Shown: one piece after another, positions 3,276 to 27,289 of the stretch
Position numbering within the stretch: the stretch's first letter is position 1
Layout of the letters: each line of letters opens with the position of its first letter
Origin: an uncultured Acidobacteriota bacterium
Lineage (GTDB): Bacteria; Acidobacteriota; Vicinamibacteria; Vicinamibacterales; UBA2999
Assembly: GCA_963846425.1 (NCBI GenBank)
Contig: CAWJVW010000005.1
Location: 2,647,350 to 2,711,349, forward strand
Reading direction: 5' to 3'
Length of the DNA stretch: 64,000 nucleotides
Notes under the pieces: model-generated
The model's input: only the letters and a program-made list of their open reading frames with translations
Told to the model about the DNA's origin: nothing
Databases searched by the model: none
Translations under genes and position numbers: made by a program

Positions 3276-3335
3276 GGGGACAGGCCTTGTCATCGGGGGA
3301 CAGTCCCTGTCATCGGGGGACAGTCCCCCTATCCC
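3276..3335. repeat. 3 tandem 20-bp units with GGGGACAG(G/T)CC core
   Basis: Units are ggggacaggccttgtcatcg (3276-3295), ggggacagtccctgtcatcg (3296-3315) and ggggacagtccccctatccc (3316-3335). The array is intergenic, between the LigD-pol stop (3351) and the DUF1080-like start (3217). Confidence 0.9.
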
Positions 3336-3350: not shown

Positions 3351-4217
3351 TCAAAGGCGTCGCAGTTTTTGAAGCGGGCGAGTCAACGATCGGCCACGCC
3401 TCCGCATGTCGGACCACAGATCACCGACCGCCGCTACTCGAACGGCCATAGTCCGCAGCGTGAACGTGCCGGGACCAATCTCGCCGTGTTCGAGCTCTTC
3501 CCACGTGCAGGGCGCGGACACCGGCGCGCCGGGCTTCGCACGCACGGCATACGCTGCGGCGAACGTCGCACCGTAGCCGTTGCGGCCAGTGTCGACGTAG
3601 ATCCGCCCCCGGCGGTCGGCCTTGCTGAACTCCTGCGTGAGGTGGGCAGGATCGCGATTTACCAGCGTCGTGCCCACGCTGTTCGCGAATTGTGCGACGT
3701 CGCTAAATCCCGCCTTGCCGTCGAGCGGGACGACAATGTGAAACCCCTTGGAGCCTGATGTCTTGAGCCAGCTGGGGAGGCCCAGCTCATTGAGAAGCTC
3801 GCGCAGCGCGAGCGCGGCCCCGCGCAGCTCCTCGGGCCGATCGGTCGAGGGATCCAAATCAAAGACACAAATATCCGGGTAATAGAGATTTGGCACGCGT
3901 GAGGTCCACACGTGCGGGGTGATCGTGTTCTGATTGGCAACCCAGAGCAGGGATCGCTTGTCGCGGATGATCGGATGGTGCACCGTCCCATCCTTTTTGG
4001 GGACGTCGACCCGCTCGAGCCACGCCGGGAAACCCTTGGACACATCCTTCTGCCAGAATCCCTTCTCGCCGATGCCCGAGGGATAACGCTCCATCGTAAT
4101 CGGACGCCCCCGGATGTGCGGCAGCATGACAAGCGCGATCGTCTCGTAGTACGCAGCCAGCTCCCCCTTGGTAATCCCCTCGTCCGGAAACAGCACCTTG
4201 TCAGGATGAGTGATCAT
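3351..4217 (-). CDS. ligD: NHEJ DNA polymerase/primase, LigD polymerase domain (stand-alone)
   Basis: MITHPDKVLFPDEGITKGELAAYY..., catalytic VFDLDP, and SGSKGFHIVVPL are typical of the LigD Pol/AEP primase domain. The ORF track starts at TTG 4229. ATG 4217 gives the canonical N-terminus, so the start is uncertain by 12 nt. Confidence 0.88.
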   Translation of the reverse strand: MITHPDKVLFPDEGITKGELAAYYETIALVMLPHIRGRPITMERYPSGIGEKGFWQKDVSKGFPAWLERVDVPKKDGTVHHPIIRDKRSLLWVANQNTITPHVWTSRVPNLYYPDICVFDLDPSTDRPEELRGAALALRELLNELGLPSWLKTSGSKGFHIVVPLDGKAGFSDVAQFANSVGTTLVNRDPAHLTQEFSKADRRGRIYVDTGRNGYGATFAAAYAVRAKPGAPVSAPCTWEELEHGEIGPGTFTLRTMAVRVAAVGDLWSDMRRRGRSLTRPLQKLRRL

Positions 4218-4236
4218 CGGTGTCAGCAACTGCGGG

Positions 4237-4257
4237 AAAAGGGGACTGTCCCCTTTT
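4237..4257. promoter_or_regulatory. perfect 21-bp palindrome AAAAGGGGACTGTCCCCTTTT (candidate operator or hairpin)
   Basis: 10+1+10 perfect inverted repeat centred on T4247. It lies in the 36-bp gap between the ligase stop (4266) and the pol start (4217/4229). It is identical to 24682-24702. Confidence 0.6.
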
Positions 4258-4265
4258 TCCTGGAA

Positions 4266-5093
4266 TCACCGGATGGCCAGCAGCCGCGAGTGGCGAAGCT
4301 TGCGATGCACCGTCCATTCGATGAAGGCAACGTGCGCGACGATCTCAGGTCGCACCCAGTGGGCGCGAATACGCGGCAGGCCGACCGCTTTGGTGAAGGG
4401 CGGCTTCGGGATCTCGAGCGCATCCAGCCGCGCGCGCAGTTCCAGAAGAAGCTTGGTATCGAAGCCGGTGCCGACCCTGCCGGCGAAGACGAAGTCGCCG
4501 TGCTCGAAGAAGCCGACGAGAAGCGCCCCGAGTCCGACGCGTCCGCCCTGCGGATCCGTAAACCCCCCGACGACGAAGTCCTGCGACGCCTCGCATTTCA
4601 TTTTCAGCCAGTGTGGCGAACGGCGGTGCTCGTATCGCGAGTCGCGCCGCTTGGCAATCACGCCCTCCCAGCCTTCGGCGCTCGCCCGTTCCCACGGTTT
4701 CGGATCATCGAGCGCATCCACGTGCGCGAGGGGCGCCCGAAACGTCATCTGTCTCACGAGCGCTCGTCGCGCATCGAGCGGCAAGGACGTCACGTCGCGA
4801 CCGTTGATCCACATGAGGTCGAAAACATGATAGGTCACGCGGGACCGTCCAAACGTGACTTCGCCGTCGAGGATCACATCGTCAACTGGCAAGGCTGCAA
4901 CCGCTGCCGCGACGGACGGGAGGCTCTGTGGCAGGCGGTTGCGGGAGAGCAGTCGAACCTCCGACCCGTTCTTGAACGCGATCAACCGGATGCCGTCGAA
5001 CTTGCGCTCGAAGATCCAGTCGGGTCCGGTGAACCGTTCCTCGGTCAAGGTCGCCGCCATGGGTACGAGCCAGTCGGGGAAGGTTGATGTCAC
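4266..5093 (-). CDS. ligD: ATP-dependent DNA ligase (LigD ligase domain, stand-alone)
   Basis: 275 aa. Ligase motifs are I ERKFDGIR (KxDG), III LDGEV, IIIa YHVFDLMW, IV EGVIAKR and V WLKMK. No phosphoesterase domain is present. Confidence 0.88.
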   Translation of the reverse strand: MTSTFPDWLVPMAATLTEERFTGPDWIFERKFDGIRLIAFKNGSEVRLLSRNRLPQSLPSVAAAVAALPVDDVILDGEVTFGRSRVTYHVFDLMWINGRDVTSLPLDARRALVRQMTFRAPLAHVDALDDPKPWERASAEGWEGVIAKRRDSRYEHRRSPHWLKMKCEASQDFVVGGFTDPQGGRVGLGALLVGFFEHGDFVFAGRVGTGFDTKLLLELRARLDALEIPKPPFTKAVGLPRIRAHWVRPEIVAHVAFIEWTVHRKLRHSRLLAIR

Positions 5094-23752: not shown

Positions 23753-23808
23753 TTGTGATCTGGTGATCTGGTGATCTTGCGATCTTGCGATCTTGTGATC
23801 TTGTGATT
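23753..23808. repeat. tandem GATC-containing octamer array (7 units), inverted relative to 22914-22963
   Basis: ttgtgatc, tggtgatc x2, ttgcgatc x2, ttgtgatc, ttgtgatt. The unit tggtgatc is the exact reverse complement of gatcacca in the upstream array. Confidence 0.9.
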
Positions 23809-23850
23809 GTCGGTGCTCCCCGATCATCAGAGCACCTCGTACAAACGTCA

Positions 23851-24660
23851 ATGAGCTTCACCGATCTCGCGCTGGCGCGGCGACTCGAAAGGGCCGAGGC
23901 CCAGAGCAACGTCGATTTCGTCGAGGCTCGCGCGCGCGCGTTGCCCGACAGCGGGGCGCAATGGATCGAGGTCGCTGGCGCGTATGCCATGTTCGACGGC
24001 ATCACGTCGCCGCTGACGCAGTCGTTTGGTCTCGGCCTCTTCGACAGGGTTACGGATGCCGAGCTGCAGCGTCTCGAGGCCTTCTTCCAGCAGCGCAGGG
24101 CCCCCGTCTGCCACGAAGTGAGCCCGCTCGCGGATCCGTCACTCCTGCCGTTGCTGAACGCACGCGGCTATCAGCCGATCGAGTTCACGAGCGTCACCTC
24201 ACGTTCATTGACTAGGTCGGCGAGCGTCGAAGGACCGCGCAACGAGCGTATCCGCGTGCGGACTGTCGATGAGAGCGAGTACGACTTGTGGGCCGAAACC
24301 GCCGCGCGCGGATGGATAGAATCTCCCGAGCTGGCTGATTTCATGCTGACCTTGTCGCAAATCAGTGCGCAACGGCAAAACACCGTGTCCTTTCTGGCGG
24401 AACTGAGTGGCCGACCCGTCGCGACTGGCGCGATGAGTCTGTGCGGAGGCGTGGCGCTGCTCGCGGGCGCCAGCACGATCCCAGAGGCGCGAAAGCAGGG
24501 AGCGCAGCTCGCGCTGCTCGACAGCCGCCTGCACTACGCCGCCGAGCATGGCTGCGACATCGCGATGATGTGTGCGCTGCCCGGCAGCGCGTCGCAGCGC
24601 AATGCCGAACGCCAGGGGTTTCGGATCGCATATACGCGCATCAAGTGGAAAAAACTGTGA
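23851..24660 (+). CDS. GNAT-family N-acetyltransferase
   Basis: Start moved to ATG 23851 (MSFTDLALARRLERAEA...). The acetyl-CoA motif region is TIPEARKQGAQLALLDSRLHYAAEHGCD. Confidence 0.65.
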   Translation: MSFTDLALARRLERAEAQSNVDFVEARARALPDSGAQWIEVAGAYAMFDGITSPLTQSFGLGLFDRVTDAELQRLEAFFQQRRAPVCHEVSPLADPSLLPLLNARGYQPIEFTSVTSRSLTRSASVEGPRNERIRVRTVDESEYDLWAETAARGWIESPELADFMLTLSQISAQRQNTVSFLAELSGRPVATGAMSLCGGVALLAGASTIPEARKQGAQLALLDSRLHYAAEHGCDIAMMCALPGSASQRNAERQGFRIAYTRIKWKKL

Positions 24661-24681
24661 GACGCCACTGTCAACGCGCAG

Positions 24682-24702
24682 AAAAGGGGACTGTCCCCTT
24701 TT
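24682..24702. promoter_or_regulatory. perfect 21-bp palindrome AAAAGGGGACTGTCCCCTTTT (candidate operator)
   Basis: Identical to 4237-4257. It lies 22 nt after the GNAT stop, abuts a TATAAT hexamer, and is 25 nt upstream of the thyA ATG. Confidence 0.6.
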
Positions 24703-24707
24703 ATAAT
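24702..24707 (+). promoter_or_regulatory. candidate -10 box (TATAAT) for thyA-folA
   Basis: An exact TATAAT lies 21 nt upstream of the thyA ATG, with GGAAG between them. No convincing -35 element is visible; that position is occupied by the palindrome. Confidence 0.3.
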
Positions 24708-24727
24708 TCTGCACAGGCCGGAAGACC

Positions 24728-25513
24728 ATGAGGGCTTATCTCGACCTCGTTCAGCACGTCCTTGACACCGGGGAGACGCGGGAGGATCGAACAGGCACAG
24801 GCACAATTTCGGTGTTCGGCGCCCAAACCCGCTACGACCTTCGCGAGGGATTTCCACTCCTCACTACAAAAAAAGTTCTGTTTGAGGCTGTTGTCCGTGA
24901 GCTGCTCTGGTTTTTGGGCGGGTGCACGAACACTCATCAACAGAAGCTGCGCGATCACACGCCCATCTGGGACGCCTGGGCTGATGCCGACGGCAATCTG
25001 GGACCCATCTATGGCTATCAATGGCGTAACTGGAACGGCCAGGGCATCGATCAGGTGCAACACGCGATCGATCTGATCAAGAAGAACCCCGCGTCGCGAC
25101 GCATCATTGTCAGCGCGTGGAATCCGGGGCAGCTTGCGGAGATGCGGCTGCCGCCGTGTCACATCCTGTTTCAGTTTTACGTCAGCCGGTCGGGCCGGCT
25201 CGATTGCCAGCTCTATCAGCGGTCCGCCGATCTCGGCCTGGGAGTTCCGTTCAATATCGCGAGCTACGCACTGTTGCTGACGATGATTGCGCAGGAATGC
25301 GACCTGACGCCGGGTGTGTTCGTGCACACGTTGGGGGATGCACACATCTATCTCAATCATCTAGAGGGACTGAAAGAGCAGTTGAGGCGCGACCCGCTCC
25401 CGCTTCCGCGAGTGACCGTCGCCCGCAGGCCATTGGGCGACATCGGGATCGGTGATATCGAGCTGCACGGGTATCAGCACCATCCGTTCATCCGTCTGCC
25501 AGTCGCTGTTTGA
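24728..25513 (+). CDS. thyA: thymidylate synthase ThyA
   Basis: [31 protein letters not shown]..., active site [12 protein letters not shown], and C-terminal ...PVAV. Confidence 0.95.
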
Positions 25514-26079
25514 TGCCTCACTTCGACATTGTCGTCGCGGCCGACGAGGCCGGAGGCATCGGCAAGCAAGGGCAGCTGCCATGGCATCTAAAAAGGGACA
25601 TGGCGCATTTCAAGCGACTGACGCAGGAACCGCCGACCGCCGACACCGTGAACGCGGTGATCATGGGACGCGTCACGTGGCAGTCCATTCCCGAGAAGTT
25701 TCGTCCGTTGCCGAGGCGGATCAACGTAGTCATCTCGGGCAATGCCGCGGTGCCGCTGCCAGACGACGTGATTCGCGCGAAGAGCCTGGACGAAGCACTC
25801 GCCACGCTGGATAGGATGGCTGACGTCGGTCGCGTGTTCGTGATTGGCGGCGGACAGATCTATAGCCAGGCGATCGTGCATCGGGATCTCGACACGATCT
25901 ATCTGACCCGCGTCCATGCCACGTTCAATTGCGACACTCGTTTTCCGGCGATCCCTCGCGCATTCGCGCTCGTTTCCGAGTCGCCGCCGCAGACCGAAGG
26001 ACCGTTGATGTACAGATTCTGCGAATATCGCCGCGCTCCCGCCGCGTCAACCATTCGTCACCGGGGACAGTCCCTGTAA
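25513..26079 (+). CDS. folA: dihydrofolate reductase
   Basis: [24 protein letters not shown]..., VIMGRVTWQSIP and VFVIGGGQIY. The ATG at 25513 overlaps the thyA TGA (TGATG). The last 17 nt lie inside the 20-bp repeat array. Confidence 0.9.
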   Translation: MPHFDIVVAADEAGGIGKQGQLPWHLKRDMAHFKRLTQEPPTADTVNAVIMGRVTWQSIPEKFRPLPRRINVVISGNAAVPLPDDVIRAKSLDEALATLDRMADVGRVFVIGGGQIYSQAIVHRDLDTIYLTRVHATFNCDTRFPAIPRAFALVSESPPQTEGPLMYRFCEYRRAPAASTIRHRGQSL

Positions 26080-26122
26080 CGGGGGGACAGTCCCTGTCAC
26101 CGGGGGACAGTCCCCGTAACGG
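26063..26122. repeat. 3 tandem 20-bp units with GGGGACAGTCCC core
   Basis: Units are ggggacagtccctgtaacgg (26063-26082), ggggacagtccctgtcaccg (26083-26102) and ggggacagtccccgtaacgg (26103-26122). Same family as 3276-3335. Confidence 0.9.
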
Positions 26123-26221
26123 TGATCAGGCGATTCTTGCGCGGTCGTGTGAATTTTTAGCAGCCGCAGGGTTCGGAACTACAATCGGTCGTTCCCGTAT
26201 TCTTCAGATTAGGAGCGCAAG

Positions 26222-27289
26222 GTGGGCATCACAGATTTCTTCAAGGGCGAACTGCTCGAAATCATCGACTGGACCGACGACTCCAGGGACACGCTCTCGT
26301 ACCGTTTTCCGGACGAGGACAAGGCGATCAAGAACGGCGCACAGCTCATCGTCCGAGAGTCGCAGGTCGCCCAGTTCGTGTACCTCGGCGAGTTTGGCGA
26401 TACCTTCAAGCCTGGTAAGCACTCGCTGACCACCGACAACATCCCGATCCTGACCAGGCTGAAGTCGTGGAAGTTCGGCTTCAACTCTCCCTTCAAGGCG
26501 GACGTCTACTTCGTCGTCACGCGCTTGTTCACCGGCAACAAGTGGGGCACATCCAACCCGGTCATGCTCCGCGACAACGACTTCGGCGTCGTGCGGGTGC
26601 GGGCGTTTGGGACCTACGACTTCAAGATTGTGGAGCCGCAGACGTTTCTCCGCGAGGTCGCGGGCTCCGATCACAACTTCAGGCTCGACGAGTTCAGCGA
26701 CACCATGCGCTCGCGCATTGTCAGCATCTTCACCGACGCCGTGGCGTCTGCGAAAATCCCCGTGCTGGACGTCGCCGCGCGGTATACCGAGCTGGGCGAG
26801 GCGCTGCTGCCGTTGATCAATCCCGCGGTCACCTCGAAGTACGGTCTCGCGATCACGAGCTTCATCGTCGAAAACGTGTCGGTGCCCCCGGAGGTTGAGC
26901 AGGCGATCGACAAGCGATCCAGCATGGCCGCGATTGGCAATCTCAACGACTACGTCAAGTATCAGATGGGGAAGGGATTCGAAAGCGGTGGTGGCGCGGG
27001 CGCTGCAGGGACGGCTGCGGAACTGGCCGTTGGTTTCGGTCTGGCGAAAGAGATGATGCAGCAGGGATTCGCCGGCGGACAGGCGACGCCAACCATTGCG
27101 GTCGGCGGCGGCGCCTCCGCCGGCAGCAGTCTCCCCGAACTCATGAGCCCCGCAGAAGCTGCGCAGGCGCTTGGCGTTGCTGAAGCGGACGTGATGGCCG
27201 TCCTCGAAACGGGCGAACTCAAGGGCAAGAAGATCGGATCGACCTGGCGCATCCCGCGCGCGGCCTTGACCAGTTACATGACGCAATAA
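26222..27289 (+). CDS. SPFH/band-7 domain protein (YdjI/COG4260-like) fused to C-terminal excisionase-type HTH
   Basis: GTG start preceded by TAGGAG. The N-terminal ~250 aa read MGITDFFKGELLEIIDWTDD...FIVENVSVPPEVEQAIDKRSSM. A Gly/Ala linker follows. The C-terminus MSPAEAAQALGVAEADVMAVLETGELKGKKIGSTWRIPRAALTSYM fits the HTH_17/excisionase pattern. Confidence 0.75.
   Translation: MGITDFFKGELLEIIDWTDDSRDTLSYRFPDEDKAIKNGAQLIVRESQVAQFVYLGEFGDTFKPGKHSLTTDNIPILTRLKSWKFGFNSPFKADVYFVVTRLFTGNKWGTSNPVMLRDNDFGVVRVRAFGTYDFKIVEPQTFLREVAGSDHNFRLDEFSDTMRSRIVSIFTDAVASAKIPVLDVAARYTELGEALLPLINPAVTSKYGLAITSFIVENVSVPPEVEQAIDKRSSMAAIGNLNDYVKYQMGKGFESGGGAGAAGTAAELAVGFGLAKEMMQQGFAGGQATPTIAVGGGASAGSSLPELMSPAEAAQALGVAEADVMAVLETGELKGKKIGSTWRIPRAALTSYMTQ

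Follow-up and report, generated by a model that had tools for sequence, protein, structure and literature searches.

In the REP/BIME and REPtron systems of Enterobacteria and Pseudomonads, short extragenic palindromes lie mostly just after genes, singly or in arrays, may stand inside operons (for example, malE-malF), and flank the gene of a Y1 HUH transposase (RAYT/TnpAREP). The canonical REP is a multi-copy, mainly extragenic sequence of 20-40 nt that is found downstream of genes and carries a GT[AG]G foot, and termination and mRNA stabilisation are among the roles proposed for it (PMC3733652).

TIRYT genes are RAYT-like and are flanked by inverted repeats that have GGGGWSAS in common (Di Nocera et al. 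2013, PMC3733652). The repeat families derived from these TIRs are of moderate abundance and are found as single copies, as dimers or in clusters, with the Acidobacteria forming a group of their own (PMC3733652). TIRYT corresponds to subclass 2.1 of TnpAY1 (Quentin et al. 2018, PMC6006769). Among the classes of Y1 HUH transposases, it ranks second in size. Subclass 2.1 is present in 14.9% of strains, has a median length of 238 aa and is recognised by its NH[VYF]H motifs (NHVH or NH[YF]H), a YIELNP or Y[IV]HLNP motif and a C-terminal HTH-like tail (PMC6006769). The 2018 survey reported no REP-like hairpins associated with this subclass (PMC6006769).

Here, we describe a palindrome from a 64-kb window (the whole stretch of DNA that was analysed) that stands between the gene of a GNAT-family acetyltransferase and thyA-folA. 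The first-pass annotation of this DNA had read it as the operator of a repressor of thymidylate synthesis, with termination of the GNAT gene as the alternative. The palindrome is not a thyA-specific repressor operator. It belongs to a kind of element that is already known, namely, the REP-like repeats associated with RAYT/TIRYT transposases.

Results

A palindrome and a TATAAT box between the GNAT gene and thyA

The GNAT gene (23785-24660, plus strand; Pfam Acetyltransf_6 and Acetyltransf_1), the synteny of which is kept in relatives, is followed on the same strand by thyA (thymidylate synthase, 24728-25513; Pfam PF00303, E = 5e-111) and folA (dihydrofolate reductase, 25510-26079; Pfam PF00186), whose start overlaps the thyA stop codon (ATGA). 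The perfect 21-nt palindrome AAAAGGGGACTGTCCCCTTTT occupies positions 24682-24702 and is separated by 21 nt from the GNAT stop codon TGA (24658-24660), so that the region from 24660 to 24730 reads tgA gacgccactgtcaacgcgcag AAAAGGGGACTGTCCCCTTTT ATAATtctgcacaggccggaagacc ATG. With its core GGGGACTGTCCCC at 24686-24698 (no strand), the palindrome is a single-copy form of the repeat family described below. The last nucleotide of the palindrome, T24702, is also the first nucleotide of an exact TATAAT hexamer (24702-24707, plus strand), 20 nt upstream of the thyA ATG (24728). The coordinates given for the palindrome, the hexamer, the thyA ATG and the GNAT stop in the first-pass annotation are all correct.

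The exact 21-mer AAAAGGGGACTGTCCCCTTTT is present twice in the window (24682-24702 and 4237-4257), compared to 0 copies in 100 shuffles, and the 13-nt core GGGGACWGTCCCC, with up to two mismatches, gives 14 strand-matches at 7 sites, compared to 1.8 on average and at most 7 in the shuffles, which places the palindrome beyond chance. It can be extended to a 29-nt palindrome, GCAGAAAAGGGGACTGTCCCCTTTTCTGC, which spans 24678-24712 (no strand) and is broken by exactly 6 nt, TATAAT. As read from the sequence, the extended form is GCAGAAAAGGGGAC-T-GTCCCCTTTT[TATAAT]CTGC, and without the interruption it becomes GCAGAAAAGGGGAC-T-GTCCCCTTTTCTGC. The 4-nt extension taken alone has a chance probability of about 6% (~0.06).

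As RNA, the 21-mer is predicted to fold into a hairpin of 9 bp with a 3-nt loop (−10.7 kcal/mol), and its 37-nt context has a predicted folding energy of −15.2 kcal/mol (z = −3.9). In the MFE structure, CAGAA is paired with UUCUG around a 6-nt bulge formed by the TATAAT sequence. An intrinsic terminator was defined as a stable G/C-rich hairpin followed by about five or more U within 8 nt. For a stem of 5 bp, 5 of 8 nucleotides in the tail after the hairpin, UUUUAUAA, are U, with only 4 of them consecutive, and the terminator scan of the window did not call the hairpin at 24682-24702. Rfam returned no match for the whole window at gathering thresholds or for 24550-26250 at E <= 1, and a full-text literature search for the core as DNA or RNA retrieved unrelated eukaryotic primers only.

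In the 64 kb, both strands considered, there is a single TATAAT, compared to about 6 copies expected from base composition, which makes it fair to call it the only obvious promoter, as had been done. The −35 position is occupied by CAGAAA, which matches in 3 of 6 positions, and the thyA-proximal TATAAT site was not called in the promoter scan of the window. Four related loci (L205-L208) have ATTCCGTTAAGCTAC in common, in which TAAGCT is conserved 21-22 nt ahead of the thyA ATG. Since TAAGCT holds the equivalent position, it supports a genuine −10 element at TATAAT. Judged from its sequence and placement, the hexamer is plausibly the −10 element of thyA and, at the same time, part of the AT-rich tail of the hairpin.

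Copies of the element at four loci of the window

The second identical 21-mer (4237-4257, no strand) lies in a split ligD locus (3351-5093, minus strand; Pfam DNA_ligase_A_M/C and LigD_Prim-Pol) that consists of a ligase-domain gene (4266-5093) and a primase-polymerase gene (3351-4217/4229). It is found in the 48-nt spacer between the stop of the ligase domain (4266) and the ATG of the polymerase domain (4217), within the lig-pol operon and 19 nt ahead of the ligD-pol ATG. Downstream of ligD-pol stands a tandem array of three units with a 20-nt period (3276-3329), two with good cores and the third degenerate (minus strand, AAGGCCTGTCCCC). Copies of the repeat thus flank and separate both split-ligD genes. 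Another tandem array follows folA (26063-26115, no strand); it has three cores that repeat every 20 nt (GGGGACAGTCCCTGTMAYCG) and lacks a T-tract, and its predicted RNA fold has an energy of −40.6 kcal/mol (z = −2.8). The folA open reading frame encodes 189 aa, compared to 173-183 aa in relatives, and its last ~15 codons enter this array.

The core is therefore present at four loci of the window (ligD-pol downstream, ligD spacer, thyA upstream and folA downstream). That the 21-mer upstream of thyA is also found in the interior of an unrelated ligD operon argues against a thyA-specific operator. The array downstream of ligD-pol and that downstream of folA were aligned with two arrays from relatives, one downstream of the L205 GNAT gene and one upstream of Ank-lig-pol in L206. 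A composite unit that includes the degenerate third repeat shows 81% column identity among these arrays. As this unit is common to non-orthologous loci, the arrays are copies of a dispersed element and not local expansions.

The window shows no general habit of using structures of this type. The scan for hairpins with a T-tract gave 9 terminators, compared to 6.5 expected, and none of the 6-7 convergent gene pairs of the window has a perfect hairpin of at least 6 bp. Neither the window, 64 kb of a 3.33-Mb contig, nor the 20-kb loci of its relatives yielded a Y1 transposase gene. Duplicated MacB/FtsX permeases, along with the MFD-style naming of the contig, suggest an Acidobacteriota-like origin.

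The element follows the GNAT stop codon in related genomes

A profile-free protein search identified a clade with ThyA 82-99% identical to that of the window, and the GNAT-thyA spacer was compared across eight lineages with ThyA identities of 86-99%. Gene order is kept in these relatives (beta-lactamase, SDR, GNAT, thyA, folA, (x), Band7/HTH). A thyA scan of the JGI metagenomes returned only relatives of <=73% identity that have a different synteny and lack the core.

The state of the spacer differs between lineages. In one relative (L332, ThyA 99%), the spacer AAAAAGGGACTGTTCCCTTTTATAATT carries one change in each half-site of the palindrome and keeps TATAAT, and the hairpin is retained through a register shift despite the mutation of both half-sites. 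With changes at 2 of 21 positions, the palindrome of L332 has diverged at a rate equal to that of the remaining spacer (6 of 67). At ThyA 90% (L333-336), the spacer AAAAGGGCTCTGTCCCCTTTTTATGGTTAAC has the hairpin followed by T5, without TATAAT. At 89%, one lineage (L207) has an element, TAAAAGGGGACAGGCCCCTTTTT, that overlaps the GNAT stop and is located ~100 nt before the thyA ATG. L205 and L206 (86%) carry a triple array right after the GNAT stop, and in L208-211 (87%) the copy is degenerate and the GNAT open reading frame reads through it. The element is absent from L202-204 (87%), where the GNAT-thyA spacer is 16 nt long, and from L337 (89%), where GNAT overlaps thyA. Downstream of folA, a single copy is found in each of L205, L207 and L333, at the site of the array of the window, and none in L202 or L208. 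In L206, the ligase and polymerase genes overlap (GTGA) with no element between them. The empty ligD site of L206 has diverged so far from the filled site of the window that their comparison defines neither insertion boundaries nor a target duplication.

The comparison of orthologous thyA upstream regions shows that the element is tied to the GNAT stop codon and not to the thyA start or its −10 element: the 13-nt core is located 2 nt (L205, L207) to 25 nt (window) after the GNAT stop, and between the element and the thyA ATG there are anywhere from ~36 to 143 nt. In four lineages, minimal hairpins followed by T4-5 (−5.7 to −10.7 kcal/mol) are retained despite substitutions and form the best-conserved part of an otherwise unalignable GNAT-thyA spacer.

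The core recurs at gene ends in more than ten phyla

An exact scan of species-representative genomes with AAGGGGACTGTCCCCTT returned at least 120 loci. Among the matches listed, the GGGGACWGTCCCC core is a multi-copy, mostly gene-end element of more than ten phyla; the groups matched are Actinomycetota (many of them Coriobacteriia), Myxococcota, Planctomycetota, Acidobacteriota, Nitrospirota, Omnitrophota, Aminicenantes, Bacteroidota, Bacillota and several proteobacterial classes. The flanks usually lengthen the palindrome by lineage-specific lower stems. The 8-kb loci around the listed matches contain an additional 24 13-mers and 13 11-mers of the core, compared to ~0 expected, and they hold hardly any other palindromes of the GGGG-XY-N-Y'X'-CCCC form. 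At least one match, located in a MetRS-like open reading frame (L086), is a chance coding match. The proposition that the cross-phylum matches as a whole are chance 17-mers or convergent terminators was considered and rejected in view of the extra copies at the same loci, the extended palindromes and the link to transposases.

The median distance from the core to the nearest stop codon is 16 nt among the matches listed. Using a GC-frame heuristic as the gene caller, for which the 'genic' class is unreliable in high-GC loci, 95 of the listed sites were classified as intergenic, 49 of them between co-directional, 31 between convergent and 15 between divergent genes. The A-runs and T-runs that flank the core are symmetric regardless of the direction of the upstream gene; a comparison of T-runs and A-runs with respect to transcription revealed no asymmetry. 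This symmetry fits a DNA-level palindrome as well as it fits a terminator. A tblastn search of the listed loci with ThyA, FolA, LigD, GNAT and Band7 returned nothing, so there is no cross-phylum regulon.

No stop codon is present in any of the six reading frames of the element. In an Omnitrophota MAG (L023), three double-core copies are found in frame within an otherwise intact MiaB, where an alignment to PDB 7mjz shows them to be insertions of 11-15 residues in loops. In this respect the element resembles the Rickettsia palindromic elements (RPE) and further in-frame inserting repeats: it is free of stop codons in six frames, has inserted three times in frame into surface loops of MiaB, and the folA open reading frame of the window and the GNAT open reading frame of L208 read into copies of it. 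It differs from RPE in its length (21-48 nt, compared to ~100-150 nt) and in the lack of a CGTC tag.

In viral contigs, hairpins of the type AAAGGGG-N5-CCCCTTT are common and have many different loops. A viral preference for ACWGT in the loop was considered and rejected, as this loop was present in 1 of 129. A BLAST search of 7.3 Gb of plasmid sequence with the 33-nt palindrome produced no real match.

Copies of the element flank Y1 transposase genes

At three loci from different phyla, namely, L004 (Planctomycetota), L009 (Nitrospira) and L109 (Gammaproteobacteria), the open reading frame of a Y1 transposase is flanked on both sides by A5GGGGACAGTCCCCT5. Among the matches listed, these complete A5-GGGGACAGTCCCC-T5 copies lie 26-120 nt from the ends of the three open reading frames. 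All three proteins match the Pfam family Y1_Tnp (PF01797), and NCBIfam NF047646 ('REP-associated tyrosine transposase'; cut-off 80) gives them scores of 70.9, 81.7 and 87.5 bits, so that two of them pass. Their mutual identity is 28-37%.

Two additional transposase genes (P0135 and P0220, at L338 and L339), which had been picked by protein similarity alone, are flanked by AAAAGGGGACATTCT ... AGAATGTCCCCTTTT, that is, by the two halves of the palindrome of the window in the form of terminal inverted repeats. The flanked transposases of all five loci carry the motifs NHVH/NHFH and YIE[W/Q/L]NP (YIEWNP, YIEQNP, YIELNP); they are 183-228 aa long, compared to the published median of 238 aa for subclass 2.1, to which their motifs point. 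None of the Y1 transposase homologues listed is located on a contig of the thyA-locus clade.

The start of the core, GGGGACAG(TCCCC), fits the GGGG[AT][CG]A[CG] consensus of the flanking repeats of TIRYT genes. Like a canonical REP, the element is a multi-copy, mainly extragenic sequence in the 20-40 nt range that is found downstream of genes, at four loci in this window; its foot, however, is an A-run, a T-run or GCAG/CTGC, and neither GTAG nor GTGG is present in any copy. On these grounds, the 21-mer is best described as a TIR-TIR, REP/MITE-like derivative of the TIRYT transposase family, and this derivation explains why the same apex recurs across phyla.

Discussion

Comparison with described repeat systems

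The closest likeness is to the TIRtrons. In addition to the fit of GGGGACAG to the flanking consensus, copies or half-copies of the element flank Y1 genes at five loci, it is moderately abundant as single copies, dimers and clusters, and the hosts reported for TIRtrons include Acidobacteria and Planctomycetes. In contrast to the long TIR of a TIRtron, the repeat described here is a complete self-complementary hairpin in which two TIR halves are fused, and Quentin et al. reported no REP-like hairpins for subclass 2.1 (PMC6006769). Furthermore, the window displays no transposase gene, and the putative subclass membership comes from motifs and not from phylogeny. With REP/BIME sequences the element shares its placement just after genes, singly and in arrays, its presence inside an operon and its position on both sides of a Y1 HUH transposase gene. 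Unlike them, it has no GT[AG]G foot, its stem is perfect and has no bulge, its apex is constant across phyla whereas classical REPs are lineage-specific, and its copy density looks modest (four loci in 64 kb).

A model for the GNAT-thyA spacer

Combining these findings, we consider it probable that the palindrome is a dispersed REP/MITE-like, transposase-associated repeat, the hairpin of which would serve as a terminator or attenuator for GNAT and the AT-rich tail of which would supply the −10 element of thyA. In this model, the core GGGGACWGTCCCC with its A-run and T-run flanks would represent the terminal inverted repeat sequence of a TIRYT (TnpAY1 subclass 2.1), and the 21-mer would in effect be the terminal repeats AAAAGGGGACA and TGTCCCCTTTT fused head to head. 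A copy would have entered, or arisen, just after the GNAT stop codon in the ancestor of the clade and would afterwards have been kept, expanded into arrays, eroded or lost, depending on the lineage. The 3′ end of the GNAT mRNA would fold into a hairpin of 9-14 bp followed by UUUUAUAAUU, and this hairpin, acting as a partial intrinsic terminator, an attenuator or a 3′-end stabiliser, would split GNAT from thyA-folA. RNA polymerase would then re-initiate at the TATAAT hexamer, which lies inside the right arm of the palindrome and interrupts it.

The part of this model that concerns termination faces several observations: the T-run is only 4 nt long and the arrays have no T-tract; the ligD copy cannot strongly terminate, given its place within an operon, 19 nt ahead of the pol ATG; one array (L206) occupies the divergent promoter region upstream of Ank-lig-pol; and the window makes no general use of hairpin and T-tract terminators. 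The suggestion that the palindrome simply terminates GNAT was closer to the mark than the operator, yet incomplete, since the hairpin is a member of a dispersed family of repeats linked to transposases, in a window that otherwise has no habit of terminating genes in this way.

Alternative explanations

The short T-run, the read-through of the ligD copy, the T-less arrays, the divergent array and the absence of a terminator habit make a neutral insertion a serious rival, which we regard as unlikely. Here, the same transposase-related repeat would have no effect, thyA-folA would be expressed by read-through from GNAT, and TATAAT would be an accident of the AT-rich tail. GNAT and thyA overlap in one lineage (L337) and are 16 nt apart without a promoter in another (L202-204), so the ancestral unit could be one operon. 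Furthermore, the T-run does not exceed 4 nt, transcription has to pass through the ligD copy, the −35 element is poor (3/6), the promoter scan did not call the site, and L333 has the hairpin without TATAAT. However, TATAAT, expected about six times, has its sole copy of the 64 kb 20 nt before the ATG, at the position of TAAGCT in L205-L208, and in four lineages the hairpin is the best-conserved part of a spacer that cannot otherwise be aligned.

It is improbable that the hairpin is a locus-specific intrinsic terminator that evolved in place after GNAT and resembles the other copies by convergence on an A4-G4-loop-C4-T4 design. Such a design is generally convergent, as the many-loop AAAGGGG-N5-CCCCTTT hairpins of viruses demonstrate, and the palindrome has features of one: it stands 21 nt after a stop codon and combines a stable hairpin with a T-run. 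Its A-run, G/C stem, short loop and T-run a few nucleotides after a stop are also those of bidirectional Rho-independent terminators, from which it differs in that the T-run has 4 nt, identical copies occur inside an operon, arrays lack T, and convergent gene ends of the window have none. Convergence leaves unexplained (i) the identical 21-mers and the common composite arrays at non-orthologous loci, (ii) the ACWGT loop, which accounts for 1 of 129 viral hairpins, yet is essentially the sole G4-palindrome in motif-bearing genomes, and (iii) the position of the motif on both sides of Y1 transposases in three phyla. In addition, the window is otherwise without such terminators.

Even less probable is an operator of a repressor or a MerR-type regulator, in which a dimer would bind GGGGAC-N-GTCCCC over the −35/spacer region of thyA, control a DNA-metabolism regulon together with ligD, and bind cooperatively to the arrays. 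The geometry does fit: as in LexA, NrdR and MerR-type operators, a perfect dyad covers the −35/spacer region next to a consensus −10 element, and the 20-bp period of the tandem copies corresponds to about two helical turns. All four loci of the window and every copy in its relatives adjoin thyA-folA or ligD in a sample that was centred on thyA, and the array of L206 falls within the divergent promoter region ahead of Ank-lig-pol. Unlike that of known operators, though, the position relative to the promoter is not fixed, being tied to the upstream stop codon with 36-143 nt to the thyA ATG. The element is missing where GNAT and thyA overlap or nearly abut, its half-sites are conserved no better than their flanks, and both of them are mutated in a 99%-identical relative that keeps the hairpin potential. 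Elsewhere, the core lies beside different genes, among the matches listed at a median distance of 16 nt from a stop codon, frequently with convergent neighbours and with no link to ThyA, FolA or LigD; it is inserted in frame in MiaB and it flanks transposase genes. Regulated thymidylate synthesis by way of this palindrome is therefore not supported.

Finally, a DNA-level site for a nucleoid-associated protein or gyrase that would shape supercoiling around thyA-folA and ligD in the manner of BIMEs is very improbable. Perfect DNA palindromes with A-runs and T-runs that are symmetric whatever the direction of transcription, regularly spaced arrays and the REP/BIME precedent (PMC3733652) speak for it, whereas the tight coupling to stop codons favours an effect at the RNA level or at the site of insertion.

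Implications

Beyond the model of a transposase-associated repeat between GNAT and thyA, we tentatively propose, as a possibility that we hold with less than even confidence, that the GGGGACWGTCCCC hairpins are the REP-type cognate repeats of TnpAY1 subclass 2.1, that their apex has been constant across more than ten phyla while the transposases diverged to 28-37% identity, that the copies tolerate open reading frames and insert beside stop codons, and that the −10 element of the essential thyA-folA operon was born inside such a repeat. The sole consensus −10 element of the window may have been, at its origin, a 6-nt interruption of the repeat.

For annotation, the locus shows that a dyad over the −35/spacer region should not be called an operator before its copy number and its orthologues have been checked; at thyA, these two checks remove the proposed thymidylate regulon. 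What is modestly new is the full hairpin form linked to subclass-2.1-like genes, the wide phylogenetic spread of the family and the possible birth of a −10 element through an interruption of the repeat. The hairpin AAAAGGGGACWGTCCCCTTTT is searchable, is tied to RAYT-like TIRYT genes in several phyla, and is found at gene ends, in arrays and in frame in MiaB, which makes it a testable substrate for a class of enzymes with poorly defined DNA targets. Together with the abutting TATAAT, it suggests a route by which an inserted repeat may turn one ancestral GNAT-thyA-folA operon into two separate transcription units.

Repeat copies within open reading frames

Copies of the dispersed hairpin palindrome also occur within a protein-coding gene. 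The MiaB-like gene of an Omnitrophota MAG (JAUSED010000009.1, locus L023, 4300–4875) carries three in-frame double-core repeat insertions of about 45–48 nt each, which encode peptides such as KMGTVPKRRGQSPFF and map to loops relative to PDB 7mjz.

The folA ORF of the window is 189 aa long, compared with 173–183 aa in its relatives. The 3' part of the ORF (26040–26079) runs into the repeat array and stops within the second of the array's units, so that the C-terminal ...RHRGQSL is repeat-encoded. A degenerate repeat copy, GGGGACAGTTCCC, is likewise read through by the GNAT ORF in the related loci L208–L211. In the window, GNAT is a single uninterrupted ORF of 291 aa (23785–24660) with a putative start codon, and it measures 269–291 aa in the relatives; the assembly's gene caller divides this region (L001, 9123–9933) between two ORFs, one of 162 aa and the other of 124 aa, which overlap.

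Repeat variants in other genomes

Some phage contigs in IMG/VR (L239, L252 and L330) have their own multi-copy palindrome, AAAGGGGTCWGACCCCTTT, which shares the A-G4...C4-T scaffold of the window repeat but differs from it at the apex. In Nitrospira sp. (JANDJI010000003.1, L338), four tandem half-sites (3880–3965) lie upstream of a gene for TIRYT, the RAYT-like Y1 transposase whose terminal inverted repeats match the palindrome halves; three of the four read AAAAGGGGACA and the most distal one reads AAAAGGGGAAA. The neighbourhood also contains a PIN/antitoxin pair and Csm6/Cas2 genes.

Repeat copies of Myxococcota-type loci (L024, L033, L047, L049, L067, L089, L093, L101, L103, L106 and L116) have an additional flank, TTAACCCYYY(S)AAAAA, in most cases on one side only, which can pair with the A-run/G-run to give alternative hairpins. 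When the copies are oriented by this flank, 12 of 15 have a central T.

Gene arrangement, terminators and promoters

LigD is encoded as separate ligase and primase-polymerase genes, the arrangement of which varies among close relatives: in the window (3351–5093) both genes point the same way and a 48-nt spacer separates them, in L206 (1–1587) they overlap (GTGA) behind an ankyrin-repeat gene, and in L203 (17789–20183) they are convergent and overlapping. Across all intergenic regions of the window, neither a perfect hairpin of at least 6 bp nor a T-run was found in any of the 6–7 convergent gene pairs, and canonical intrinsic terminators appear to be rare in the source genome.

A Band7/SPFH-HTH_17 fusion gene (26222–27289 in the window) follows folA in all relatives, either directly or with one ORF between them. 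Upstream of it is a promoter-like TTAGCA-17-TACAAT (26157–26185); conservation of the block GAACTACAAT extends to L202 and L333. Among the more distant thyA relatives from metagenomes (L123–L163, 60–73% identical) are many high-GC loci in which the upstream neighbour of thyA is oriented divergently and TGCTATA(C/T) ends 6–8 nt before the thyA ATG, a position that suggests that their thyA mRNAs may be leaderless and transcribed from an extended −10 promoter.
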